NCBI GenBank assembly: GCA_051546255.1
Contig: CP128815.1
Span: forward strand, 744,001 to 808,000
Origin: Meyerozyma guilliermondii
Taxonomy: Eukaryota
Length of the DNA: 64,000 bases
Reading direction: 5' to 3'
Shown: positions 28,267-45,295 of the stretch, piece after piece
Numbering within the stretch: the first letter of the stretch is position 1
Layout of the letters: every line of letters begins with the position of its first letter
Program-made: the position numbers and the translations under genes
The notes under the pieces: model-generated
Told to the model about the DNA's origin: nothing
The model's input: the letters and a program-made list of their open reading frames with translations, nothing else
The model's database searches: none

Positions 28267-31200
28267 CTACTGCCTTGCCAGAACAATTTTGTAGCCTCCA
28301 TCGAGTGCTTGAGTAATGGCTTCACTCTTGTACGGAATTGTTGCAAGAACAAACGCAACGTCGTTCCACTGTTGTTCATCCAGGCACTTTGTTAACCGTA
28401 CTAGTAACTTTTCAGCAAGTTGTTTCTGTTGTCTCTCCTTCTCAATGAACCCAACGAGGAACTTGACAACTCTCTTCATCGAGTCCTTTGACAATGTCTC
28501 GTCGTTCAGAAGCCCGCTGAAAATATCTATGAAACCATTGTAAATGGCGTTATCCTTTGTTGCAAGCTCACTAAAGAACAAACGACACATATCGCTGATT
28601 CCTTGGTCAGGGTTCTCCAAGCACTTTGCCATTGAAGACAACTGGCCTTTCACCTTCACCTGGCCAGCCAAAATCAAGAAAGTGACTGTCATGAGACATG
28701 TTCTTTGAACCATGATACTCTTATCGTTGAGTCTTCGATACAAGAAGTCTGTGTTTTCGTCAACAAGATTATTAAAGCAAACTGCCATATCTCCTAAGCC
28801 CAAAACGCAATTGCATCGAATGATAGGATCGGGCGACTTCTCCATAATCGTTATCAACAAGGGTAAGTTTTGTTCGCAATAGCGTGATGAAATGCACATG
28901 AGTTTGACGAGACATAAAGTGGCAGATCTTTGTAAGCCTTGATGCTGGTAGTTTTTGCTCTTTGAACATATCTCACGTACCAAGTTGCCAAACTTTGCAA
29001 GGAGTGAATTTTCACCATAAAGTAGTTCCTTTTCTTTAATGTAAAGAACAGCATCGGCGAAATCATCTTCAGAAGTACCACCGATCATCTCAAGTTCGTT
29101 ATCTTCACCACCGTCTTTCTCGGCTGCTTCCTTAGTGGCTCCTGACTCCACAGCTTGCTTTCTCTTTTTGAACTGACCCTCCAAATTTTCTAAATAAACG
29201 ATAGTTTTGATGGAAACATGCCCCACCATGAACAAAAGTTGGGACAATGAATTGATCTGATTTGAAGAGTCATCACCGAAGACGTGAGCTGTCTTCTCCT
29301 TTAAAATGGTTGAGCAAATCTCGTCTGGTTTGTCAGAAATCGTAAAGAGTGCACCAATAGCTTGCTCGGCAACACTAAACCACTCGCCATCTTCGTTGAA
29401 TTCAAGAAGCACAGAACTTAGTTTCTCAACGATCTCGTCTTCCCGCTTGATACGAACTGTTCGTGGTTCCTTGTCATTAGGCTCCACTAAGCGCTGAAGT
29501 GCTATACAGGTGTACCGAGCAAGCGACATGTCCTTCTTTCCGAGTTCACCTAGTCCAATGGTCAACAACGAGTCCAAACCATCAGCAGCGATCTGACTGT
29601 TGCCCAACGCAAACATGCCTAGTACAATAACTGCACCTCGTCTCTGTTTCTGCGAAAATTCGGTCGATTCGCCTTTAAAGTTGTAAATCTGCCATAAGAC
29701 TTGAAGTACATCGGGATGAACTAATTTGTTCTCATACATGAGACACAAAAGTTTTTCCAACGATGCCAAATCTGCAATGGAGGCTGCGTGAGTTAAACTC
29801 ACCAAGTTCTTGGCGATGTAAGCTGCTTGTTCGGCTCTGCTAGAATCTTCTCGAGGAGATAAAAATAGTTGCTGATAACAATCTATCAAATGTGCCGAGA
29901 TCGATTTACCTTCGTCCGATGATCCCTTCATCCATACCAAGTGTAACATCTTTCTAATTCCCTCGGAAGCATTTTGAATGTCATAAGCGTCAGCAAGTAC
30001 CAAGAAGTCCATCGATTCAAGGACTTCGTTTCGATTCTTCGAGTAAAGTAGTCTCGAAATAATATCCACGCCGGCATGGATGGCTTCAATGAATGCAATT
30101 GCATCTTCATAGTACTTGAGAGTGAGCCTTGCTTTAATCAACGCATTCGAATCTTGCAAGATGGGATTGCTACCACTGTGATCGTTCTCTGAGTCCACAC
30201 GTGGGCTGTTAGCTTCTCCATCGGCATCGGAGCCATCTTCACTTTCCTGATCCTCTTCATCGTCAGGATTATCTTCTTCCATGGAAACATCGCCGTCGTC
30301 TTCATCGTGCTCAGAGTTGACATCTTCATTTATGGGAGCCAAATGCCCCTCCCTTTCTAATAAGTCTTTCAAATATGCTTTGGCACTTTCATAACGAGAT
30401 AACCAGAACTTGTAGGAAAGTTGGGTTCCATGAAGAGCAGCAAAAGGATGAGTCAAGACCAACTTCGACATGAGCTTTATAGCGTTCCTTCTCACCAAAG
30501 TACTTCGATCATCAAGTGAACGTACCAGAAGCTCCATGATTTTTTGACGCCTTTCATTGAATTGCGATGGCATGTTGAAGATTTTGACAAAGGCTTGAAT
30601 GGCCTTTGTTCTAACATATGGGTTTTGGTCTAGGAAACGTTCTTGAAGGAGGTCAACAAGGCCATCAATATGGACATCAGTGTTCCTGCCACTTTCGTCG
30701 TCATTTTGGCGGCCCTTCTTCGCAACATCCACGACAATATTTCCACAAGTCTCTACCACGGAACAACGGAGAGTGTAGTTGGAGTTATCCAAAAGCTGAG
30801 CGATACAAGACATCTGTTTTAGGATGAGTCTTGGACTCGACTCAGAGAGTTTAATCAAAAACTCTGAGATTGACTTGGGTCCGTTGTTATCATTTGAGTT
30901 GAATTCGATTTGTGAGATCTCACGAAGAACCTCTTCTGTTAATCCGTTGTGATCATACAGTTCATCTAGAACGTGTAAAAACTCTGCCATGTACTGTGGA
31001 AGATGTATGTAGTAGGTGAGACATTGGATGATAGCACTTTGGACGTTAAGAGATTGGCCATGAAATTTGACTGCCACTGCAAGGTCTCGGAACATTAATA
31101 GTTTAAGTGGAGTGATTTTCATCCTTTCTGCTACTTCCATTAAGCGAAAGATGGGCCTCGTAAACAATTCAATGAACCGATCGCGTTCCGGAGTTGTTAT

Positions 31201-31710
31201 GAATATTCTTGTGAGATCGATTTTCAAGACATTATGAATACATTCCAACAATTCTTCAACAAGGGCACAATTGGCTTTCCACAATCGATGAGCTTCAGAA
31301 TTTCCATGTTTCAGTTTGCTGGCAAAAGCTCGGCTGTGGTCTTCTTTGCCCAAATAGACAAGTAAAACATAAATGAGATAACCGTATTTTTCAAGGCTAG
31401 CTTTGAAGTTATCAGCAGCGTCCACAAAATCGCCATTTTGAACAGCACCAGCTATTTGATGGGAAATCGTGTTTGAAGATGATGCAATTAAGTACACTAC
31501 TTGTTTCTGATGCTTTTCATTCAACGTTTTGTATCCGTGTACAAGTTCCATAAGCTCATCAAGTAGTTCCGAATTGAAGTTGATATTGTCAGGGTTGGCA
31601 GCTAACACCTCTGTTACTGATTCAAGCTTAGAGTCCACATCTGGAAAATCCACCGAATACGACTTGTCGACTTCAAAATTATTGAAGTTACTACTTAGAC
31701 TGAACTCCAT
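28267..31710 (-). CDS. YCS4: Condensin HEAT subunit Ycs4/Cnd1
   Basis: RFLDQNPYVRTKAIQ, ELEMIGGTSEDDF, TFLILAGQVKVKGQL; first plausible start MEFSL at 31710. Confidence 0.95.
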   Translation of the reverse strand: MEFSLSSNFNNFEVDKSYSVDFPDVDSKLESVTEVLAANPDNINFNSELLDELMELVHGYKTLNEKHQKQVVYLIASSSNTISHQIAGAVQNGDFVDAADNFKASLEKYGYLIYVLLVYLGKEDHSRAFASKLKHGNSEAHRLWKANCALVEELLECIHNVLKIDLTRIFITTPERDRFIELFTRPIFRLMEVAERMKITPLKLLMFRDLAVAVKFHGQSLNVQSAIIQCLTYYIHLPQYMAEFLHVLDELYDHNGLTEEVLREISQIEFNSNDNNGPKSISEFLIKLSESSPRLILKQMSCIAQLLDNSNYTLRCSVVETCGNIVVDVAKKGRQNDDESGRNTDVHIDGLVDLLQERFLDQNPYVRTKAIQAFVKIFNMPSQFNERRQKIMELLVRSLDDRSTLVRRNAIKLMSKLVLTHPFAALHGTQLSYKFWLSRYESAKAYLKDLLEREGHLAPINEDVNSEHDEDDGDVSMEEDNPDDEEDQESEDGSDADGEANSPRVDSENDHSGSNPILQDSNALIKARLTLKYYEDAIAFIEAIHAGVDIISRLLYSKNRNEVLESMDFLVLADAYDIQNASEGIRKMLHLVWMKGSSDEGKSISAHLIDCYQQLFLSPREDSSRAEQAAYIAKNLVSLTHAASIADLASLEKLLCLMYENKLVHPDVLQVLWQIYNFKGESTEFSQKQRRGAVIVLGMFALGNSQIAADGLDSLLTIGLGELGKKDMSLARYTCIALQRLVEPNDKEPRTVRIKREDEIVEKLSSVLLEFNEDGEWFSVAEQAIGALFTISDKPDEICSTILKEKTAHVFGDDSSNQINSLSQLLFMVGHVSIKTIVYLENLEGQFKKRKQAVESGATKEAAEKDGGEDNELEMIGGTSEDDFADAVLYIKEKELLYGENSLLAKFGNLVREICSKSKNYQHQGLQRSATLCLVKLMCISSRYCEQNLPLLITIMEKSPDPIIRCNCVLGLGDMAVCFNNLVDENTDFLYRRLNDKSIMVQRTCLMTVTFLILAGQVKVKGQLSSMAKCLENPDQGISDMCRLFFSELATKDNAIYNGFIDIFSGLLNDETLSKDSMKRVVKFLVGFIEKERQQKQLAEKLLVRLTKCLDEQQWNDVAFVLATIPYKSEAITQALDGGYKIVLARQ

Positions 31711-31809
31711 ATTGATGTGTGTTTGTTTTTGATCTGCGCGATTACGCATCGAATTGTGTACCGTGTTTTGTGCAGGAACACGCCGATGAGCTATCCTAGT
31801 ATACAATTA

Positions 31810-33177
31810 TTAATCCTTAAGACGAGCATAGCCCTTCATAATGGCTTTGTTGACTCCCATCCTCTCGTCTTCTAATGCAGCAAGTAAATCTTTCATCGTG
31901 ACTGAATCTCCCGTTCGAATGTCACGGAACCTAAGACCATTGTCTCCACGAAGTGCCAACAAGTGACTCTGCTTATCTTTTTCTCTTTCCATAGCTTTGC
32001 TGTCATCTCCATTTCCTGCTCCTGAGCTCATCCACAGGTACTTTTTCTTGTTTGACGTCATCATTGCCGCAGTTTCATTAGCGGCTCTATGTAAGGTTTC
32101 CTCTGCGCCCACTTTATTACTCTCCAGATTGGCGTCCTTGTTTTCAAGTCCAAGTAGAATACGCCTGCTGACTCTCTGTTCCTCAAGCTCCTTTTGCTTG
32201 AGAGCCAAATTGCGTAGTTCCTTAGATACTTCAGATCGAGGAATTTGATTTGCAGCAAGCTTCTTGTTTTTGAGAGCTGGGATTCCTCGACGACGATGGC
32301 GTGATAATAACACGGTCTTGGTGGCTATATGACTAATCCACTGCTCGCACGACGCCGACATTAGTTCGAGAAGTTCGTTATCACTCATGAAACTTTGCAA
32401 GACTCCATTTTCACGGGCTACCCTTTGCATAAAAGTGCCCAAATGATACGAGTTGAGAAACGGCGTTCGCTGAATCTGCCGTGCTGGACGCAGCTGGAGG
32501 TAAGATGGTTGTTGGACGTTTATTCTTGGAGCCCGGTTGTATTGCTGCTGTTGAAGCAATTCTTCTTCCCTACCAATATCCACTCCAGCGGCAGCCAAAG
32601 CATCGTTCAACTTTGAAGGATCGTTGGTATGGAAACGATCCTGGTTGTTTCCGCCAGCTTGGCCCGTAGAATGGCCCGTGGAAAAGTTGGGCGCTGTTCT
32701 GTTGTCAATGCTTGAGGTGTTGAGTCCGTGAATACTGTTGGCCTGCTGAACTAACGGATTCATTCTGTTTACCGGAGCCGATGATGATGGAACCACAGGT
32801 GCCGAGGGCATGGCGGGACGTATTATAGGGCGAGAAATTTGCAGCGATTGAGGTACATTTATCATGCTTTCAGATTTGATGGGTTGCGGAGTTTGTGAGC
32901 CCGAAGTTGAACGTCCTACCAGATTTCTATCCGCTTGTATATCGTCCTTCTGCAACAATTCAGCAGGGAGATTATCGAAATCGATGTCCATAATGTCTTG
33001 TTGGTTAGCATTACCCGAAGCTGCTTCCAATTCAGATATGCCGTTGGCTCCCAAAATAGCATTAAGTTCCTCATCAACGTCCACAGGCGATTTTGAGCTT
33101 CCTCTCTGGCGCTTAGAGTCCGAATCAGCCGCGTCCGGGGTCTCAGAGGGCCTCTTAGAACCGTCGGAGTCCAGCAT
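31810..33177 (-). CDS. TAF4: TFIID subunit 4
   Basis: LNDALAAAGVDIGREEELL, histone fold, HRAANETAAMM..KKY(S)WM, VTMKDLLAALE. Confidence 0.92.
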   Translation of the reverse strand: MLDSDGSKRPSETPDAADSDSKRQRGSSKSPVDVDEELNAILGANGISELEAASGNANQQDIMDIDFDNLPAELLQKDDIQADRNLVGRSTSGSQTPQPIKSESMINVPQSLQISRPIIRPAMPSAPVVPSSSAPVNRMNPLVQQANSIHGLNTSSIDNRTAPNFSTGHSTGQAGGNNQDRFHTNDPSKLNDALAAAGVDIGREEELLQQQQYNRAPRINVQQPSYLQLRPARQIQRTPFLNSYHLGTFMQRVARENGVLQSFMSDNELLELMSASCEQWISHIATKTVLLSRHRRRGIPALKNKKLAANQIPRSEVSKELRNLALKQKELEEQRVSRRILLGLENKDANLESNKVGAEETLHRAANETAAMMTSNKKKYLWMSSGAGNGDDSKAMEREKDKQSHLLALRGDNGLRFRDIRTGDSVTMKDLLAALEDERMGVNKAIMKGYARLKD

Positions 33178-33310: not shown

Positions 33311-34432
33311 ATGTCTACGGCGGTAAAGGCGAAAATAGTGACGCTTGAAGGCCATCGAAATTTCCGATTACGACTCGTGCTCTCTACATTGTCGGGAAAA
33401 CCAATAAAAATTGTCAGAATTAGATCCGATGACATGAATCCTGGTCTTCGTGACCATGAAGTATCGTTCCTTCGACTCTTGGAATCAGTAACTAACGGCA
33501 CTCATATCGAAATATCATACACTGGTACTACTGTCATATACAAGCCTGGCATCATAATTGGCGGTCAAATCACTCATAATTGTCCTAATACTAAACCTAT
33601 AGGATACTTTGTAGAACCCATGTTGTACTTGGCTCCATTTTCCAAAAAGAAGTTTTCCATTGTTTTCCGCGGACTCACTGCATTGAACGACACAGATGAT
33701 GCTGGAATCGACGCCTTGAAGTGGGGAATACTCCCCGTCATGGAAAAGTTCGGCGTCCGTGAAGCTGCATTACATATCAATAAGAGAGGATCTCCTCCTT
33801 TGGGTGGAGGTGAAGTCCATTTTGTTTGTGACTCCTTGATTGCCCAGCCATTGACGATCCATGCTCTTGAGGTTCCCAAGATCTCAGCAATAAGAGGTGT
33901 CGCATACTGTACTAGAGTTTCACCCAGCGTAGTTAACCGGATAGTTGATGCGGCTCGTAAAGTGTTGAAGCCTACCGGGGTGGAAGTGAATATTACAGCC
34001 GATGCTTGGCGTGGAGAACAATCGGGAAAGTCTCCAGGTTTTGGAGTTACTTTAGTCGCTGAGCTGAAAAAAGGATGGAGAATCTTTTCGGAGGGAGTAG
34101 GAGCTGCGCAGCTGCTCCCAGAGGAACTTGGTGAAAAAGTAGCATACCAGTTACTCGAGGAATTAAGTCTAAGTGGAACTCTAGGAAGAAGTCAATTAAA
34201 ACTCGCATTGACCTACATGGCCATCGGAAAGGAAGACATTGGTCGTATAAAGCTCCATAAAAGCCAAATCGATTCCAACTTAATATGGGTTTTGCGAGAC
34301 ATAAATTCAATAGTTGGCACAGAAGCTTTCTTCAAAGATGGCCTGGATGATATCGACCCTGAAGAAGCAGACTTTATGACTTGCGCTATGAAAGGAATTG
34401 GGTTTACGAGTGTTTCCAAAAAGATTGCTTAA
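33311..34432 (+). CDS. RCL1: RNA 3'-phosphate cyclase-like rRNA processing protein
   Basis: FRLRLVLSTLSGKPIKI, NPGLRDHEVSFLRLLE, KRGSPPLGGGEV, GKSPGFG. Confidence 0.96.
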   Translation: MSTAVKAKIVTLEGHRNFRLRLVLSTLSGKPIKIVRIRSDDMNPGLRDHEVSFLRLLESVTNGTHIEISYTGTTVIYKPGIIIGGQITHNCPNTKPIGYFVEPMLYLAPFSKKKFSIVFRGLTALNDTDDAGIDALKWGILPVMEKFGVREAALHINKRGSPPLGGGEVHFVCDSLIAQPLTIHALEVPKISAIRGVAYCTRVSPSVVNRIVDAARKVLKPTGVEVNITADAWRGEQSGKSPGFGVTLVAELKKGWRIFSEGVGAAQLLPEELGEKVAYQLLEELSLSGTLGRSQLKLALTYMAIGKEDIGRIKLHKSQIDSNLIWVLRDINSIVGTEAFFKDGLDDIDPEEADFMTCAMKGIGFTSVSKKIA

Positions 34433-34465: not shown

Positions 34466-37400
34466 CTACCAGAACGAACACCATCCAATGTAGTGCTGGC
34501 ACAAGTTTTCGACGCTAGTTGCTTGTTGTATAAGCTTGTCGACTTGAGTAGGTACATCCAAACCATGGAGCCTTTTGATATCATTTCCGGTAAGCTTATC
34601 AGTAATTCTCTTTAATACCAACGCTGCTCGAGCGTTACGAATTTCAACATCGTTCTGCTTCGTGAGTTTAACAGCCTCAGCTTCATCAATCTGTCCACGA
34701 CGAAGAAGTTCTGCCACATTGACTTGTGGAACCTCAATACCTGTTGCTTCAGCCATGGCTTTTGTAGGGAAGTCAAAACCCCAATTGATCAACGGATCAT
34801 AAGCAAAAGCTTCCAAAATGGCCATCAAGGACTCTTTGTTATCTCTCAACACACGCATTACATGCTCACATGTGATTCTGAATGAGCCCTCTATACCGCT
34901 CACTTCCATAGCATAATTGAGCATCCTTGTGAGCCTAAATGGCACTTTTTCGGGATACTTTTCACGTAGTATAGCCGCTTCGAAACAGTCACCAAAATCA
35001 ATATGAATCACTTTACCGGTTATACGGTCAAGCATCAAGTTGGAAGGATGTCTGTCTCCCAAACCAAGGATATAACCCACCATAGACATGACTGCCAAGG
35101 AGCGGGTATATGTAGTACGACGGTCCAACCAAGTTTCCGAAGACTTGGACTTCAACCACAACACCTTATACAAATCTTGACCTCTGGTATTATCGAGAGC
35201 ACCCATGAAGACTTCAACCTTTTGCAACAAAGTTAAACTGTCATAGTCAGGAGCCATCTGCAACATGATTCGATGTTCAATGTTCAAGGTGATCTTTCTC
35301 GATTCACGATACTCTTTGATAAGAACATGGAAAGTATCACTGTGTGGGAACCAGCCAAAGAGACCAACCTTTGGAGCAAGGGGAATAGCTGGAGACCTCT
35401 CGATATCGAGATGTCGTTTAAAACATTCCGGATCGTTAACCAATAAGGTATTGACTAGACCAAATAATTGCATAACAAGGTTATCCTGTCTGATATCTTC
35501 ATGTCCTTTCAAGGCAAACGAATAATCTTTACCATCGCTTCCTCTGCAAGTAAGTTTTCTGGGTCTCTGTTTCGAAGATATAACCGTCAAGGAAGGATCG
35601 AATTTGGCAATGCGTACCACTGGTTTACCAGGTTCGTAGGTACCTGGAACGGCTAATTCAAGATCCGTTGCCTCTTCTAATTTTGGTGAAACGTATTGAA
35701 GTTCCAATGTTTGGAGTTGTGGGAGTTGCCTGCTAATACGACGGAACACATTGTAGTAGACATCCCAAGCTTGATTTAAGTTGGTGATATCCTTGGTACG
35801 ACGGAAGTTCAACACCCATTCATAGGCATCTGCCAACTCCCTCCCGAACGCATTTGCAAACGAAGATTCCCTCAAAGTTTCGGGCCCCTTTTGAAGCATT
35901 TGATGTAGAGGCTCCAAAACTTCGAACATCTTATCAGTATTGTGTTCACCAAAGAACAACCTCGATGCATCTTCTAGTCCTTCATACCATTGTTCGTGCC
36001 ATAAAACAGCAACACGAATTAGTTCATGACTGACAAGTTCTGATTGATCGACTAAGACAGGAGAGTGTAAACGCATTTGGTCTATAATCGACAACGCTGC
36101 ACGCTGCCTGTTAACAGACTCAGAAGTCACTGCAACTGCAAGTGGATATACAAGCGCCTGTGGATGAGCTTTGCCTAGATCTGTGAGAAGACCAAATAAG
36201 GACCTACTCACAACCTCGTTAGGCTGATGAATTCTCGAGATCAATTGTGGTATCACTTCCAACCATTTATCGATCTTGACCATATTGAAACCATCAGTCA
36301 TAGCCTTCGCAGCTTCACTGATTCCACCAAATTTGAACCATAAGGTTAACAAACGCAAAGTATCTTGTAACGAGCTAGCGGTGGATAAAGCAATGGAATG
36401 AAAGAAACCTTTGATTGAAGGAACCACATGCCTTTGCACAATTTCCATTGGGATAATATTGGACTGTGGTGCGGAAGGACCAGCTGCCTTATTTTGACCC
36501 TTACCAGCTTCATCTTCAGCACCAAGAGTTCCGTTTTGAGGCATGATGTCATCTTGAACGCTAGTATCCTTTGTGGAATTTGTACGCTGGGTGGTGTACA
36601 GCGAGATGACTTCAAAATTTGCTAGCGCCCAGTTGTGCCAAGCCTTGTACCACTTGGTATCGAAATGAGTAGCCAAAAGGTACGCTCCCAAAATGATTTC
36701 GGAAGTATCGTTTCTCCAGTTGCTATTTAAAGCAATCTGCCATTCCCCTTGCTTCAAGAAACACCTGGCAAGGAGTCTTGTGTACTCCTCCACATGCTTT
36801 GGAATACCTGGCGCTTCAGAAGGTAGAGGTTGGGTGATCAAATCGTTTGGATTCAAACCCAAGTCTTGCGACATACGAGCTGTGAAATCAACCAAATGGC
36901 GGAGTGCTTCTCGTTGTTGTCCCTTAGCCCACATGTACTTTATCTGAGCATAAACCACTTGTGGTGGAGCCTTAGAAGGATTTTCAGGGAACCCCTCCTC
37001 CAACAAATAGTTGAGAGATTTCTCAGCCAAATTAAGACGGCCCGACTTTCGACATAAATTGGCAAATTTGATCCACATATCCATATCCTGCTTGGGCTTG
37101 ATCACTAAGGCCCTCACTTTAAGCATACGTTGCCAGATATCGACATTACGTTGACATCCTAGCAACCTGGTGTTCCATGTCTTTCTCATAATTGCACGCT
37201 TTTCAGAACCTCGAGGCAAGCATTTATACTTGATAATCTCCTCTAACTCGGCAAGCATTTGAACTCTGACAACGACTCCATATGCTCTATTGTAACTTTC
37301 GCTGACAAGCGCTGTTATTTCAGTAACCAACAAGTCTCTTGCAACCAATATATGATTCGATGCATCTTCAAAGTTGTTTCTGTGCAAACTAAGAATGGCA

Positions 37401-40400
37401 TTGAAAAATGCTTTATCAGGAGATTCGGATTTCATGACTTGGATACAGGTATCCATTCGGTCCCATTGACCCAAACCCCATGCAGCAGCTGCTGCTAACG
37501 GTGCAACCATTCTCTTGGTGTCACTGGACGAGTTATTCCATTTGCTCTGCGCCAATTCAGATAACTGTTCCCATTCTCCAAGAGCATGCAAACATCTCAT
37601 TTTACCCATGACGACATCCATATTATCAGGCTCTGATATCTGTCGTTCATTATAAGCTCTTAAAGCGTCGTCCCAACGCTGTAGCTTTTCATACCATGTT
37701 TCCTTAAGTTGGAGATCATGGTGCAATTGTGCATGCTTTAATATACCAACTGCGGCATCAGATTGCTGTAATTGATTATTGATACTAATCAAGGACTCAA
37801 TAGTTGGTGTAGACGGTTCCTCATAGAATTCAAGCTCCTTGTAATGCAACGCTTTGGCATAAGCATGACATCGTTGAGCGTATTGGCCCAAAACAGTGAT
37901 TGCTATAGGTAATGACTTGTCGTCATGTTCCATAAACTCTGCCAAATTCAACAAAATTTGATGAATTTCAGGAGGATTATTTGGTGACGACAATGCGATA
38001 CAAAACGATTCCACAAGCTCTTCCTGATGTTGTGAATAAAGCTCACTCCAACAACTTGCAAAACTGGCATTGAATAAATCCTTTGCTAATGGGTAATAAT
38101 CGGAAGCTAATCCAGCACATGCTCTGATTGCATGCGAAGGACTTTGTTTCAAAAGTTCCTTACTCAAACGGCTTATCCAATCTTGCCAATCTTCCTTGGT
38201 TCTTCTTTGTGACGAGTCCCAAGCAGCCTTTAAAGCAGACTGATTGACAGGAAGTTTCTTGGAAGGCATGTCGACATCGGTTGGATCAAAATTCAGATGG
38301 ATATCATAGTCTTTGTAGATGTTGAGATGTGTGGGTAATGGATCTCCACTCAAGAGTTTTGTAACCAACTGTTCAAAAGTATTGGAGTGAATCTTTTGCT
38401 GGACTAAAACCTTCTTGATGACTGGAATAAACACACTAAACTCTGTGCCAAGCTGCAATAGTAAATAACTCAAGGTGTTCATCGCCGTGACTTTTAGCTC
38501 ATCACTTCCTTGTTGCAAGACTCGCAATATTGGATGGATTATTCTTGAAGCCATATCGTTTAACAGAACTGTTTTCGAAAGTCTACCGATAGTTTCAATC
38601 GCGGCTTTACGCAACACTATAGGACCAACTTCGAACAACTTGACGATATTTGGAACCATGATATGTATATATTCCTCAGTGTTGCTTCCGAATACAACTA
38701 AGCTTCGCAACACATGTAAGGAAGGCTCACGCTTGGCGGTCTCATCTTCTTCAAGAACATTCAAAAGTAACGTCAAAACTTCTGGCATGTGCATTTTGAA
38801 CTCCCCTTCCAATGCACGCGAGATGGACTCGATGAGGGAGATGATTATGATTTGGATATTAGGATTGTGAATCAGGGTGAAAAATTCCTTGATGATGGCA
38901 AAGATTTCTGGTAAAAATGGACGAATATGCTGCCTCACGATTAGAATGAGGGCACTAAGTTGCTGAAAGTAGAATTTCAACATCGATGTCTGGCAAGTAT
39001 GCATAACGTTGATGATTCCTGGTATAATTAGTGGCAAGAATGAAACACATCTGAGTCCGAGTGTTTGAAAGATATACATTATTGCTTGAATCACCTTGTT
39101 GTGGTGCATGCTCAAAGAGGGATCTTTCAAAATTTTGGTCAAATTGTTTATGGCAACCGTTGGGTAGTACTCTTCATTTGAAGGAGACATTCCCTGCATC
39201 AAGAAAGCCACATCTACTGGGGCAGCATTTTGGTCAGAAGAAATGCTCTTTGAATTTTGTTCGACCTCACGGTGCTTGTATGGATCCAAGGCACCTAAAA
39301 TACCCAATAATCGAACGGTTTCTCGACGAATATGTGGGGAGGTCTCCAGTTTAAGAATGCCAACCAACATTCCCAAAAGCTGAGGAAAGTCCAAGAGAGG
39401 CTGTATAACATAACCCGAAGAGCTTGCTAATTGACCGAGTGTCTTCAATGCTGCATCTCTTTTGAATGAAGAGCTCTGGTCTTGGAAAGTGTCTAAAATC
39501 AAAGGCATTAATTCCTTGATAAATGGCTTCATATCCTCGCCTGCAACAACAGACATCTCTCCCAAGCAGCTAATAGCACTCGCTGCAACAGAAGAGCTTG
39601 GATCTTTGGCTTTGGGTAACAACGCTTCCACGATGGGTTTTGCATATGGCCTTGTAAGCTCCTTGGATTCCGCAATCAAAACTGCAAGAAGAGTTGCACT
39701 TTCTTCCTTCCTTCGCGCCAGCGTCGAGTACTCTAAACGAGAAAGTAATTGGATAAGAGTACGCCTTAAGGATGGAACAATATAAGCAGGATTAATGGAG
39801 GAAAGCTTTCCGAGAATTTGAACAGCAATCTTTCTTATGGCGAAAAGTTCATCGTTCAATGCAATAAATAATAGCTTGACATTCTCAGCTTGCGAGAGCT
39901 GAGGGCCAAAACTTTCGGCTTTTGAAAGGCATTTGAGAACCTCTAATCGAATTTCGGGAACAGGGTCGGTAATGGCGACAGAAGTCAACTTGTCTAAAAC
40001 TTCATTGACGGCATTAAGTGCATTCACACTTGTTTGTTGGCATATGGGGTCTCTTATGAATATCTCACAAGAAGTCACCGTTGCAATTTTACGAACTCTG
40101 GGGTTACTATGTTCCACGTACTTGATAGTACAAAACCTCACGAGTTCATTCAACTGAAAGTTTTCAAATTGGAAAAAATTGAGCATTTTTAATGCTTGTA
40201 TTAGAATCTCACTGTCGAATGTGTCATAGGAATCGTGATTACTGAGAATTTGATTGATGCTCATGCCGGTGTCTCTAGAGATCATGATAAGTCGGTAGTT
40301 GCGAGCTAATGCAGCATTGGTCTTGATTGAACCATAAGGTGAGCCTGGAGGTTGATAGGTTTTTCCTGACAAAACCAAACTCAACAAATTAAGAAGCTTG

Positions 40401-42001
40401 ATGTTGATGGAGTTTGTCAAGCTAGGAACATTTGAGATCAAAGTCTGCAACACATTTTGCATGTGTGTAGATAGCGAGCAATTGCTAAACATCATATCCA
40501 AAATATCACGCTGCAAGTGTTTAGTTAATGCCGGTCCCACAGCGATAGACAATTTACCAATACAGTCAAAAATCGCTGGTTCTGTATCTTTTCTGCTCAA
40601 TGCATATTTGGACGAGCCGGATACCGAGTATGGTAAGGATGTAAGGCCAGATGCAGAATGCTGACCAGAGCCGGAAGAATTAGAAGATCCGGAAATTGAA
40701 CCCTCTACACTGGTGGCATTGAGTAGTAACAGTTGCACGCTAGAGTTTGCTGGATATGCTAAACCTTCCCGTATGTTGTCGAGGATGGCATCGAGATATG
40801 TCGCCATGTGGTTACCCACTTCCAACGAGATTAATCCAATACTCATGAAAATAGCACTTTTGTCATGGTTAGCGGTTTCGTTATGCTGGTTTCTATTTTT
40901 TTTCAATTGCGACAAGTAGTAATGCAATGTCTTGTGGAGGTACTTTTCGACATAGACCTCTGAATTAACTCGACACAACAATGGAAAAATATTGGTGAGC
41001 TCTTGTCTTATCACTGCAAACCGATGATTGCGATATGCCATTGAACTTTCGCAGATAAGTTCGAATTTTTGCTGGATGTAAGAATCATAATGATAGCGAA
41101 CAAGCTCCCGATATACAAGTAATGATCCGTGAATGTACTCACTTGGCTGGGAAGACGAGGATGCTAAAAAGTTAAGAGCCGCGGAAGCAGCGTTGTTCAC
41201 TGAATTTGAGGTTCCATTGGCCGACGAGATGACAGACACATTTCCGTTTTCAGTATGGGTGTCCAGATTATCGTTGTTATCGCCCAAGATTCTGGAAGCC
41301 GTATCGATAAAGCTTTTTATCCAAAATTTACGAGAATTGGCGTCTCTGTCATACAAGATTGCCATGCACTTTTGTAACGTCACCGCAGCATCTGTCCTTA
41401 TCACGAGTTTGGTATCCCTCAATGGAATCCAAAGATGCTCCAAGATTTGATTAATGAAGTTGTAGAGTAATGTAGGAGCATTATCAGCTAAAGCACTGAT
41501 GATTAATATAGCTGAGTGTCTCCTGTTTTCGTGCTGTTTGTTATCTGCCTGAAGCCATTCAATAGCTCGATTGGCTTCGAAATCAACAAAATCACCAGTT
41601 AATGTGCCTCCAGGTGTTGCTAGCTTTCCCAAAGTTCTGGTAGCTTGCTTCATAATGGTTATGTCACTGGATAATATCAATGAACCAAGGTAGTTTGAGA
41701 ACCTAGCCGTCTTTGTAGCATTCTCCTCGCCGACTCCAGAGTCGAAATCTATCAAGGAATTGAGCGCAGCTATACCACCGAGCTTCTCGGAAGTCTCCTT
41801 ACTGTGTAAAAGCTCGAATATAGTCTTATTTATGTCGTTATTAATTCGATTGAACTGCTCTGAGGTGACATCCCGGGCTACCGATGCTAGATGTTCTCTT
41901 AATTCATGGGCACATCTATTGCGTTCTTCCTCCTTCGGTGATCGGAGCCCGTTGAAGATCTGGTGTAAGGCGACATCAACGATCTGTACCTGTGAGGACA
42001 T
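34466..42001 (-). CDS. TOR1: Target of rapamycin PIKK kinase
   Basis: 2511 aa; HEAT repeats, FAT, FRB ([17 protein letters not shown]), kinase [17 protein letters not shown] and [22 protein letters not shown]. Confidence 0.98.
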
Positions 42002-43639: not shown

Positions 43640-45295
43640 TTAATACTCATCCTTGCCGGAGATAATGACATCGTTGATCTTGAGGATCATTCTTGTCAAT
43701 TGCGTGGCCAATAAAAGTTGCTGTTTCTTGCCGATCAATGGATCTATGACGAACAACTCTTTCATGTCATTTGTTCCATTACCCAAGCAGTCCACTCCTA
43801 AACGAGACGAACCCTCGTTCACTTGCTTTGACTTGAGCGTAGACAAGGTTTCGATAGGATCGAGACCGGAGTTTTCCGCTAATGTCATTGGAATTACGTC
43901 CAAGGCTGCTGCAAAAGCACGGAATGCATATTGATCGATACCAGTTTGCTCATCAGCAGACGCAGAAACTGCAATTGAGCATGTAAGTTCGGCAGCACCT
44001 CCTCCGTAAACCACTCTATTATCTCTGATTAAATTTCTCACCACACAAAGCGAATCGTGCAAAGCTCTGGACCCTTCAGCTACAATCATCTCGTTTGAAC
44101 CACGAATGAAACATGTCACTGCCTTTGTATTGGAACAATCTTCAATGACAAGCATTCTGTCACGAGTGGTTCCAAACTCCAACTCCTTGATGGTTCCGCA
44201 ATGACCAAGCTTTTCCGGTGTCAAATCCTCAAACCGAGGAACTATACGTCCATTGGTAGCAATGGCCAAAAGCTCCAACTCTGAACCTCCAACCCATCTG
44301 ATGGCAGTCAAGTCGTTAGCTAACAACAAGTGGTTTGCTTCGTCGTCAAATCCCCACTGACAAGCCACAACATTGGCGCCAGACTCTTTGACGTAGTCTA
44401 TCATTTCTTGAAACTTTTTCTGTTCGTACTCTTGAAGAGCTTTGAATTCTTCCACTGTGGATATATCCAACTTGTGTTTGGTCTTTGGCTTTGGAGGCTC
44501 GAAAGGACAGGTTAATATAGCAATCTTACAGTCTTCCACCTTCTTAGGCATTTGAGGGTGAGAGAACTCCTTATCGAGCAAAACGCCCTTGATTAACGAT
44601 GAGTCTTCAATAGCACCACCCACTTTAGTTTCCATCTTTATGAGTTCGAAATCAACATCTTTACGTTCGAAATCGGCAACTGACAACACAGCATCCACTG
44701 CCATTTGTGCAAAGTGATCGTGGGCCTTGGACACAATTTTACTGCCCAATGATGTCTTGGCGGCTCTTAACAAGTTGCCGTCGGTAGTATCTCTCGAGAA
44801 ATGAATCTCGTCAGCAACTTTATCGAGCTGGTCGCATGCAAGTTTACAAGCCTCATCAAACCCGTTTGCGACTTTGAGCGGGTGGATTCCCTTTTCGATC
44901 AATCCCAAAGCTTGGTCCAACAACGCTCCAGCAAGTACAACCACACCTGTAGTTCCATCACCGATTTCGTCATCTTGTGATCTCGACAATTCAACCAATA
45001 ACTTTGCAATCTCATTGTCAATGTCCATTTGCGACAAAATAGTGGCACCATCATTGGTAATGGTGATCTCGCCATCCTGACTGATCAATATCTTGTCTAA
45101 TCCACGAGGTCCTAATGATGTACGAACAATCGAAGCCACCGAACGGGCGGCCAAAATGTGCGATTTAGTAGCCTCAATACCGCGTTTTCTCTGCTTCTTT
45201 CCTTGATCCCTAACTATGATGAATGGTCTCCCCATCTCATCTTGTGCCACTATGGCATTAGACATGTCGGGCAACGCCTGTTGGGGTGCAGCCAT
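43640..45295 (-). CDS. CCT5: Chaperonin CCT epsilon subunit
   Basis: [40 protein letters not shown]. Confidence 0.97.

Follow-up and report, generated by a model that had tools for sequence, protein, structure and literature searches.

An intact TOR kinase gene in Meyerozyma guilliermondii with an atypical ATP pocket, probably rebuilt in steps

Three residues in the ATP pocket of the Meyerozyma guilliermondii TOR kinase, Ser2203, Phe2215 and Phe2218, are lineage-specific and essentially unseen elsewhere in the sequences surveyed. TOR is the central growth regulator of eukaryotes, and a large drug class, together with caffeine and other natural compounds, acts at its ATP pocket. By sequence comparison, this pocket is close to invariant. 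We think it probable that the locus is an undamaged, functioning TOR gene from a M. guilliermondii-type CTG-clade yeast, in which the adenine and inner (affinity) pocket was rebuilt stepwise. From residue identities, the three unusual residues may alter the binding of ATP-site inhibitors. The gene lies on contig CP128815.1 of assembly GCA_051546255.1; all positions below refer to the window, the whole stretch of 64,000 nt that was analysed (744,001–808,000, forward strand).

A complete TOR gene

The gene and its main domains are placed in the window as follows.

34466..42001, minus strand: complete TOR kinase gene of 2511 codons and a stop, readable without an intron (open reading frame list, translation, Pfam scan)
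35732..36025, minus strand: FRB (FKBP12-rapamycin binding) domain, residues 1993–2090 (PF08771, E = 2.5e-42)
34781..35524, minus strand: PI3/PI4-kinase catalytic domain, residues 2160–2407 (PF00454, E = 3.8e-76)
34469..34561, minus strand: FATC domain, residues 2481–2511 (PF02260, E = 3.1e-17)

The frame is open throughout its length and translates into 2511 amino acids. The protein has the domain order of the TOR family, HEAT repeats, FAT, FRB, PI3/PI4-kinase and FATC, and the Pfam domains follow one another in order (FAT, E = 7.7e-136; mTOR_dom, 5.1e-69; FRB, 2.5e-42; PI3_PI4_kinase, 3.8e-76; FATC, 3.1e-17). When the kinase region was compared with solved chains using HMMER, it matched 5fvm (E = 1.6e-240), 6emk (E = 1.3e-234) and mTOR (E = 1e-179). 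This architecture and these matches bear out the original prediction, made from the window sequence, that the gene encodes TOR.

Alignment likewise upheld the prediction of an intact catalytic lysine, DRH and DFG motifs, and FRB serine. Lys2165, the DRH loop and the DFG motif are the same as in TOR2 and mTOR, and K2165, N2321 and D2335 are unchanged in 118/118 budding-yeast TORs, M. guilliermondii included. Ser2013 of the FRB domain (codon 35963–35965) aligns with mTOR Ser2035 in comparisons with mTOR and FRB structures, the position being hand-counted. Apart from the residues described below, the pocket of M. guilliermondii TOR is canonical in the alignments.

Residues of the ATP pocket

The HMMER alignment to the solved mTOR chains is ungapped in this region (5h64_A 2097–2549 against query 1–437), so that the mTOR number is obtained by adding 22 to the TOR residue number. 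The two kinase-domain stretches on which the prediction was built were found at residue 2159 (15 residues) and residue 2197 (26 residues). Sequence and alignment, or translation for the segment, give the following features.

35513..35515, minus strand: Ala2163, codon GCC, at mTOR Leu2185
35483..35485, minus strand: Asp2173, codon GAT, at mTOR Asp2195, canonical in the window
35393..35395, minus strand: Ser2203, codon TCT, at mTOR Tyr2225 (inner-pocket tyrosine)
35357..35359, minus strand: Phe2215, codon TTT, gatekeeper, at mTOR Ile2237
35348..35350, minus strand: Phe2218, codon TTC, hinge residue, at mTOR Val2240
35336..35413, minus strand: strand-hinge segment, residues 2197–2222 (26 residues)

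The gene holds eight CTG codons, none at the four pocket sites. Thus the four predicted codons (GCC, TCT, TTT and TTC, none CTG) are present at their expected positions, and the proposed equivalences, L2185 to Ala, Y2225 to Ser, I2237 to Phe and V2240 to Phe, follow from the ungapped alignment. By hand count, Phe2215 aligns with Leu2178 of Saccharomyces cerevisiae Tor2. At the four sites S. cerevisiae TOR2 (6emk) has V, Y, L and V, while the TOR chain of 5fvm has L, Y, L and V. These canonical fungal TORs share with M. guilliermondii TOR the family, the architecture, the catalytic motifs and the FRB serine, but differ in the pocket: their Tyr, Leu gatekeeper and Val hinge are Ser, Phe and Phe in M. 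guilliermondii, accompanied by E2201, A2209 and H2220 within the strand-hinge segment. All four residues fall at ATP-site ligand contact positions, as placed by alignment onto published contact lists. The available portions of PMC11677242 and of a base-editing preprint (bioRxiv 10.64898/2026.09.08.748517) include L2185, Y2225, I2237, V2240 and D2195 among the ATP or inhibitor contacts of mTOR.

Rarity of the pocket across TORs

The frequency of each state was determined in three sets, which may overlap: 118 budding-yeast TORs, 114 of them outside the Meyerozyma clade; 150 TORs; and 80 fungal TOR loci from a metagenome scan, none from the Meyerozyma clade (best protein identity, 91%). Outside the clade, neither Ser nor Thr was found at the Tyr2225 site (0/114, 0/150 and 0/80). 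The site was Tyr or Phe in 114/114 budding-yeast TORs; it was Tyr in 117, Phe in 29, Met in three and Gln in one of the 150, and Tyr in 57 and Phe in 23 of the 80. A Phe gatekeeper occurred outside the clade in 0/114, 0/150 and 2/80, the usual residues being Leu (111) and Ile (3) in the first set, Ile (100), Leu (27), Val (20), Ser (2) and Cys (1) in the second, and Leu (77) and Ile (1) in the third. A Phe hinge was found in 0/114, 0/150 and 1/80; this site was Val in all 114, in 128 of the 150 (L13, M3, Y3, I2, A1) and in 79 of the 80. Asp at the mTOR Asp2195 site was constant (150/150, 118/118 and 80/80).

No surveyed TOR outside this yeast clade combined a non-large residue at the Tyr2225 site with a Phe gatekeeper or hinge. 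A typical TOR pocket has an aromatic residue at mTOR 2225, an aliphatic gatekeeper and a Val-type hinge; M. guilliermondii has S, F and F, and this atypical pocket leaves its membership of the TOR family unaffected. Within the strand-hinge segment, six residues each occur in fewer than 5% of budding-yeast TORs: E2201, S2203, A2209, F2215, F2218 and H2220. Only 3/118 sequences, all Meyerozyma, have six rare residues in residues 2197–2222, while 68/118 have none. A word-based search of a 5.8-billion-cluster protein collection with residues 2190–2232 returned 54 candidates, among which only the protein's own cluster and P0006 reached at least 95% identity over these residues; the next best had 86%.

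The original prediction had counted four unusual substitutions, and held that it would be refuted if the same residues were common across unrelated fungal TORs. The survey sustains it for Ser2203, Phe2215 and Phe2218, which are near-absent outside the clade, and not for Ala2163, which is common in budding yeasts. At the L2185-equivalent site the 118 budding-yeast TORs have Val (42), Leu (38), Ala (34), Cys (2), Met (1) or Ile (1); only outside budding yeasts does nearly every TOR have Leu (142/150). Both the JA9-type sister and cluster member P0005 have Val at residue 2163. The claim that L2185 changed to Ala in this lineage is contradicted by the presence of Ala in 34/118 budding-yeast TORs, and no derived substitution is recognizable at a site divided in this way among Ala, Val and Leu. 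By this census, Ala2163 is ordinary budding-yeast variation, outside the lineage-specific remodelling. In human mTOR the laboratory mutation L2185A reportedly gives resistance to ATP-competitive mTOR inhibitors (Wu and colleagues, Cell Rep, 2015). The likeness to M. guilliermondii is the Ala at the aligned position; the difference is that natural budding-yeast TORs commonly have Ala there. A hot-spot residue of mTOR thus varies in nature among Ala, Val and Leu in budding yeasts.

Order of the changes

In a FastTree phylogeny of 118 full-length TORs, M. guilliermondii and the JA9 type group with P0006, a species-level relative that is 91% identical (support 1.0 and 0.999). The states at residues 2203, 2215 and 2218 are S/F/F in M. 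guilliermondii, T/L/F in the JA9 type, S/L/F in P0006 and Y-or-F/L/V in the outgroups. Thus the Tyr-to-Ser and Val-to-Phe changes are common to M. guilliermondii and P0006, and the Phe hinge is also found in the JA9 type. The Leu-to-Phe gatekeeper change is specific to M. guilliermondii, its JA9-type sister (Meyerozyma sp.) having Thr and Leu. The direction of single-site changes is read from outgroup states only.

These states suggest two steps. In the first, in an ancestor shared by Meyerozyma and P0006, the Tyr at the Tyr2225 site would have become Ser and the hinge Val2240 would have become Phe, accompanied by Q2201E and N2220H. In the second, after the split of the two Meyerozyma lineages, the gatekeeper would have changed from Leu to Phe in M. 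guilliermondii, while in the sister lineage Ser would have become Thr and the next hinge residue would have changed from Pro to Ser. Four sites differ within this very young clade: 2163 (A/V), 2203 (S/T), 2215 (F/L) and 2219 (P/S). The alignment that had been proposed for checking the numbering and dating the changes thus confirmed the numbering and arranged the changes stepwise. The order does not fit the suggestion that Tyr-to-Ser and gatekeeper-to-Phe were a compensatory swap, because P0006 and the JA9 type keep a Leu gatekeeper; the tyrosine was lost first, together with the Val-to-Phe change at the hinge. A Phe gatekeeper alongside Tyr was found in 2/80 metagenomic fungal TORs.

Herein, we describe how the pocket may have been remodelled. 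Loss of the Tyr ring would open a cavity and remove the Tyr hydroxyl, and the later changes would partly refill the space. Approximate standard residue volumes differ by about −105 cubic angstroms for Tyr to Ser, +50 for Val to Phe, +23 for Leu to Phe and +27 for Ser to Thr. Leu to Phe and Ser to Thr, the different second steps of the two lineages, would thus add a similar volume. The outcome would be a catalytically competent kinase with a reshaped back pocket, a bulkier gate and no Tyr hydroxyl, and its affinity would be expected to shift for ATP-site ligands that reach into the back pocket. Contacts, clashes and compensation in volume are deduced from which residues are present and from published ATP-contact lists; the change in inhibitor profile is a prediction. 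Three other fungal TORs (L028, L072 and L077) have either a Phe gatekeeper or a Phe hinge while retaining Tyr, and in the set of 150 the gatekeeper stays aliphatic and the hinge stays Val in the TORs with Met or Gln at the Tyr2225 site. Therefore, coupling between these sites is not obligatory.

Further changes, A2163V, I2170V and D2173V, are present in two near-identical public proteins. Residue 2173 is Val in public proteins P0005 and P0127.

Concentration and rate of change

Among 986 columns at least 90% conserved in the 114 other budding-yeast TORs, M. guilliermondii deviates at 21, and five of these deviations fall in residues 2201–2220 (permutation p = 0.001, 20,000 permutations). The two Meyerozyma lineages differ at 46 positions, of which seven lie within the 111 amino acids of the N-lobe and hinge (p = 0.0035), and three of them are among 18 pocket sites (p = 0.004); the windows and site sets of some of these clustering statistics were picked post hoc. 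Identity between the two lineages is 93.7% in the N-lobe and hinge, 98.2% overall and 99.4% in the C-lobe. The changes A2163V, I2170V and D2173V make up 3/8 variant sites and lie within 11 residues (post hoc p = 3.5e-6). In relative-rate tests, the excess in the N-lobe and hinge depended on the outgroup: 14 versus 2 with P0011 (p = 0.004), and 10 versus 4 with P0009 and 11 versus 5 with P0007, neither significant. Acceleration of the whole TOR gene was rejected, the root-to-tip distance being 0.61 versus a mean of 0.67.

Alternative explanations

The pocket changes could have been fixed by selection from a natural ATP-competitive inhibitor of TOR or related kinases (PIKKs), such as a caffeine-like purine or a fungal metabolite, leaving the yeast intrinsically tolerant, as the original prediction suggested. 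We regard this as unlikely. The changes lie at mTOR ATP and inhibitor contacts in the lists cited above (PMC11677242; bioRxiv 10.64898/2026.09.08.748517, in the portions available). A few sites (2163, 2203, 2215 and 2219) were altered repeatedly in a very young clade, concentrated beyond chance, and the A2163V, I2170V and D2173V changes of the two near-identical public proteins lie in the same stretch. But relaxed constraint following the loss of the tyrosine would be just as likely to produce such recurrence, and Ala at the L2185 site, the sole residue with a reported resistance effect, is ordinary yeast variation. Our literature search found no report of unusual tolerance of M. guilliermondii to caffeine or TOR kinase inhibitors and no phenotype data on wortmannin- or Torin-type compounds, and the literature searched yielded no inhibitor or ATP-affinity data for its TOR.

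Habitat offers a weak lead. In the available portions of PMC8620865 and PMC12346622, M. guilliermondii and M. caribbica are among coffee-fermentation yeasts, and one review lists M. guilliermondii among the yeasts reported to metabolise caffeine. The coffee lists, in the same portions, also name yeasts with a canonical pocket, Debaryomyces hansenii and S. cerevisiae; since these share the habitat, coffee explains the pocket only weakly. The broader idea, that a natural ATP-site ligand has repeatedly driven positive selection on the TOR ATP pocket within the Meyerozyma clade, is one we hold to be tentative and improbable. If true, the clade would display naturally evolved steps of target-site tolerance in a PI3K-like kinase: the tyrosine lost and the hinge changed to Phe, then either a Phe gatekeeper or Thr at residue 2203, and further A2163V, I2170V and D2173V in the near-identical public proteins. 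Such a series would include a viable bulky gatekeeper, which was reportedly hard to obtain in laboratory work on mTOR.

If a neutral or slightly deleterious loss of the tyrosine was instead fixed by chance, the later changes could be neutral or nearly neutral noise under relaxed constraint, and binding of ATP and inhibitors would not be meaningfully changed. Each Phe alone is tolerated in other fungal TORs, Met or Gln stands at the Tyr site in 4/150, every change is one nucleotide away from common codons (judged from the window sequence), and the relative-rate signal varies with the outgroup. These columns, however, are among the most conserved in the protein (hinge Val and Tyr-site Tyr or Phe, 114/114; Asp2195, 150/150), and the clustering (p = 0.001) together with the sister-lineage recurrence at the same sites is hard to obtain under uniform drift. 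Side chains so unequal in size would also seem unlikely to leave binding in the adenine pocket untouched. We consider drift unlikely.

Faulty sequencing or assembly, misreading of the genetic code, a pseudogene or a divergent additional paralogue would be a very improbable source of these residues, since an identical protein is recorded from NCBI, ENA and Logan assemblies (table-1 translation on six contigs), the four codons are all non-CTG, the frame runs uninterrupted through 2511 codons and encodes all the TOR domains and catalytic motifs, and two of the three changes are common to the separate species-level relative P0006. The same hinge segment is present in 11 of the 15 members listed for a 25-member protein cluster, and this agreement among independent assemblies argues against base-calling error. 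CTG-clade yeasts are not known to have more than one TOR, and no second Meyerozyma-like TOR cluster was found among the best 120 homologues.

Comparison with known kinase alleles

The reading that we prefer, an intact TOR gene with a stepwise rebuilt pocket, can be set beside engineered gatekeeper alleles of TOR. Leu2178 of S. cerevisiae TOR2 is reported to be the site of an analogue-sensitive allele (Kliegman and colleagues, 2013), and the Ile2237 gatekeeper of mTOR was reportedly found intolerant of mutation (Wu and colleagues, 2015). The residue is the same, F2215 corresponding to Tor2 L2178 and mTOR I2237 by hand count. The engineered alleles shrink the gatekeeper and so admit bulky inhibitors, whereas in M. 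guilliermondii it was enlarged to Phe, by the inferred order after the pocket tyrosine was lost. In conventional protein kinases, a bulky gatekeeper restricts the pocket behind the adenine site and gives target-site resistance. The likeness is the larger gatekeeper side chain; the differences are that such resistance arises under therapy, while M. guilliermondii TOR is a PI3K-like kinase and its change is species-fixed.

A viable natural enzyme and sister lineages with intermediate or alternative states form a ready-made series. This series could show how a PI3K-like kinase tolerates changes of the gatekeeper and affinity pocket, and how inhibitor selectivity shifts with them. M. guilliermondii has roles in industry and food, and at times it infects humans. 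If its inhibitor profile proves different, this would bear on TOR-directed antifungal ideas.

Rapamycin acts through the FRB domain, and its binding should stay unaffected by the pocket changes. The expectation that rapamycin sensitivity is kept agrees with the presence of the FRB serine and with the available portion of PMC2631134, in which 20 nM rapamycin aggregates cells of C. guilliermondii ATCC 6260.

The TOR gene and its ATP pocket

The TOR kinase of the window is encoded by one unbroken reading frame, established from the ORF list and its translation, and its neighbors are ordinary housekeeping genes.

TOR gene and flanking genes
28267-31806, minus strand: condensin Cnd1-like protein
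31810-33177, minus strand: TAF4
33311-34432, plus strand: RNA 3'-terminal phosphate cyclase-like protein
34466-42001, minus strand: TOR kinase, 2511 codons
42209-43603, minus strand: actin-family protein
43640-45295, minus strand: TCP-1/CCT chaperonin subunit

The Pfam order (HEAT repeats, mTOR_dom, FAT, FRB, PI3/PI4-kinase, FATC) is that of the full TOR architecture. For the last 437 residues, E values were 1.6e-240 against the solved TOR chain of 5fvm, 1.3e-234 against that of S. cerevisiae TOR2 (6emk) and ~1e-179 against human mTOR. The 90% cluster of the protein includes entries from Meyerozyma guilliermondii ATCC 6260 and Meyerozyma sp. JA9. An NCBI record translated with the CTG=Ser code is identical to the window protein. 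The source is therefore a CTG-clade yeast of the M. guilliermondii type. The gene has only eight CTG codons (residues 246, 424, 761, 885, 1043, 1146, 1236 and 1801), all in variable or gapped alignment columns; since the identical NCBI protein has Ser at each, they fit the CTG=Ser code of the clade.

The original prediction described four substitutions in the ATP pocket. Both peptides on which it relied were found in the translation, and the codons GCC (35513-35515), TCT (35393-35395), TTT (35357-35359) and TTC (35348-35350) were confirmed, with CTG at none of the four sites. The mTOR and S. cerevisiae strings used for comparison match PDB chain sequences in the HMMER alignment, which has no gaps here, so that the mTOR number equals the residue number plus 22. 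Thus, the observation itself is confirmed: A2163, S2203, F2215 and F2218 correspond to mTOR L2185, Y2225, I2237 (the gatekeeper; Tor2 L2178 by hand count) and V2240 (the hinge), and K2165 corresponds to mTOR K2187. The interpretation was partly supported: only three of the four pocket changes are specific to the lineage, the order of events is not that of the proposed swap, and resistance stays a hypothesis.

The change that fell away is L2185 to Ala. Residue 2163 is V in 42, L in 38, A in 34, C in 2, M in 1 and I in 1 of 118 budding-yeast TORs; eukaryote-wide, 142 of 150 TORs have Leu at the mTOR L2185 site. Ala2163 is therefore ordinary budding-yeast variation (34/118), and the four substitutions shrink to three. 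Wu et al. (2015) reportedly described mTOR L2185A as a resistance mutation, as well as intolerance at the gatekeeper; L2185A is also mentioned in a review. Across budding yeasts, V, L and A are roughly equally frequent at this laboratory-resistance site.

Rarity of the pocket residues

Rarity was assessed in three possibly overlapping surveys: (a) 118 full-length budding-yeast TORs (120 candidates less the homologues P0013 and P0092, removed for length), 4 of which belong to the Meyerozyma/P0006 clade, hence 114 outside it; (b) the best 150 representatives, spread across eukaryotes, of a search through 1.84 billion proteins in 50%-identity clusters; and (c) 80 fungal TOR loci on metagenome contigs. 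P0006 is a 91%-identical relative.

Residues outside the clade
Tyr site (mTOR 2225): (a) Y or F 114/114; (b) Y117 F29 M3 Q1; (c) Y57 F23
Gatekeeper (mTOR 2237): (a) L111 I3; (b) I100 L27 V20 S2 C1; (c) L77 F2 I1
Hinge (mTOR 2240): (a) V 114/114; (b) V128 L13 M3 Y3 I2 A1; (c) V79 F1

Neither Ser nor Thr occurred at the Tyr site outside the clade in these 114, 150 and 80 TORs, and the residue combination of the window protein was unique among the TORs surveyed. A word-based search of a 5.8-billion-cluster collection, restricted to residues 2190-2232, gave 54 candidates, among which only the query's own cluster and P0006 reached at least 95% identity over that stretch (next best, 86%). Three more rare residues, E2201, A2209 and H2220, share a 26-residue segment with S2203, F2215 and F2218. 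Of 986 columns conserved to at least 90%, the query differs at 21, five of them within 2201-2220 (permutation p = 0.001); this concentration is not due to chance. Outside the kinase pocket, T673, G699, F933 and Q1975, the last immediately preceding the FRB domain, are also unseen in the 114 other budding-yeast TORs at columns at least 90% conserved.

Survey (a) left out P0003-P0005, namely two chytrid models and the query's cluster representative. The chytrid entries, named tor1 (4007 and 2829 aa), outscore true relatives in bits at 65% identity, and are therefore probably fused or duplicated gene models.

Order of the changes

In a FastTree phylogeny (LG+gamma, 118 TORs), the window protein grouped with proteins of the sister JA9 type (P0124, P0126, P0134; support 0.999). 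These were joined by P0006 (support 1.0, stem length 0.123), and then by Priceomyces carsonii and Debaryomyces.

Residues at 2163, 2203, 2215, 2218 and 2219
Window (M. guilliermondii): A, S, F, F, P
JA9 type: V, T, L, F, S (CTG)
P0006: A, S, L, F, P
Outgroups: A/V/L, Y/F, L, V, P

The direction of change rests on outgroup states. By this comparison, Tyr to Ser and Val to Phe came first, alongside Q2201E and N2220H. The Phe gatekeeper followed in M. guilliermondii only, and the sister lineage instead acquired S to T and P to S. A simple swap of Tyr to Ser against gatekeeper to Phe, as originally proposed, is contradicted, since two lineages combine Ser or Thr with a Leu gatekeeper. If the loss of Tyr has a coupled partner at all, that partner is the hinge Phe. 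By standard residue volumes, Y to S frees about 105 cubic angstroms, while V to F takes up about 50; the alternative second steps (gatekeeper L to F, or S to T) each add about 23-27. These values hint at refilling of a cavity. Against obligatory coupling, two metagenomic loci (L028, 3238-3483; L072, 1550-1807) have a Phe gatekeeper and keep Tyr, and a third (L077, 220-477) keeps both Tyr and a Leu gatekeeper beside a Phe hinge; each change is thus tolerated alone in nature. Likewise, where a TOR of survey (b) has Met or Gln in place of Tyr, Ile is retained at the gatekeeper and Val at the hinge.

Possible local acceleration

Overall, the gene does not evolve fast (root-to-tip 0.61 versus a mean of 0.67). 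The window and JA9-type proteins differ at 46 of 2511 residues. The N-lobe plus hinge, 111 residues long, holds 7 of these differences (p = 0.0035), and a set of 18 pocket sites defined from the literature holds 3 (p = 0.004). Over the N-lobe plus hinge the two are 93.7% identical, compared with 98.2% for the whole protein and 99.4% for the C-lobe; when other species are paired, the N-lobe plus hinge is better conserved than the full protein. A Tajima-type count for this region, made against Priceomyces, gave 14 versus 2 unique changes when Debaryomyces served as outgroup (p = 0.004), but 10 versus 4 and 11 versus 5 with two other outgroups, which was not significant. Because the result varies with the outgroup, stem-branch acceleration is suggestive and not established.

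Function and possible causes

Kinase motifs are canonical in the alignment and the 118-sequence survey, as predicted, as are all the other pocket residues, namely I2141, P2147, K2165, D2173, G2216, W2217, T2223, S2320, N2321, M2323, I2334 and D2335. The FRB domain aligned intact, including its serine (Ser2013, mTOR 2035). C. guilliermondii ATCC 6260 aggregates under 20 nM rapamycin, according to PMC2631134. It is almost certain that the enzyme is active and sensitive to rapamycin.

The structure of mTOR was reportedly described by Yang et al. (2013). A docking paper (PMC11677242) counts the mTOR positions in question among the contacts of ATP or ligands, and a base-editing preprint (bioRxiv 10.64898/2026.09.08.748517) names them as ATP-binding residues whose mutation is linked to inhibitor resistance. 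Loss of Tyr to Ser would take a ring and a hydroxyl out of the inner pocket, and Phe at gatekeeper and hinge would make its entrance narrower. We favor, with some reserve, a compensated, stepwise reshaping that kept ATP use and altered the fit of back-pocket compounds. The natural variant is new; the kinase itself is very well known.

That an inhibitor drove the changes is unlikely. An analogue-sensitive allele at Tor2 L2178 and caffeine-resistant TOR1 alleles are known; a literature search found nothing on the caffeine-resistant W2176R allele. In the literature searched, no report connected the TOR of M. guilliermondii with ATP-site inhibitors or an unusual pocket, though one of the searches cannot establish absence. 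Coffee-related reviews (PMC8620865, PMC12346622) name M. guilliermondii and M. caribbica as fermentation yeasts, and one of them lists M. guilliermondii among caffeine-metabolizing yeasts; this habitat is also home to yeasts with canonical TOR pockets. Drift after relaxed constraint is unlikely to a similar degree. An artefact is very unlikely.

Variants in near-identical proteins

Among the 15 of 25 cluster members listed, the P0005 record carries I996M, A2163V and D2173V, and P0127, found on four contigs, carries I2170V and D2173V. These changes may be natural, laboratory-derived or assembly errors. Apart from I996M, these proteins differ from the window TOR almost solely within 2163-2173 (window 35483-35515), a strand-helix stretch adjoining the catalytic lysine. 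Three of the eight variant sites of the species-level group fall within these 11 residues (post hoc p = 3.5e-6, for the 15 of 25 members listed). D2173 (mTOR D2195) is Asp in all other TORs surveyed (150/150, 118/118 and 80/80).
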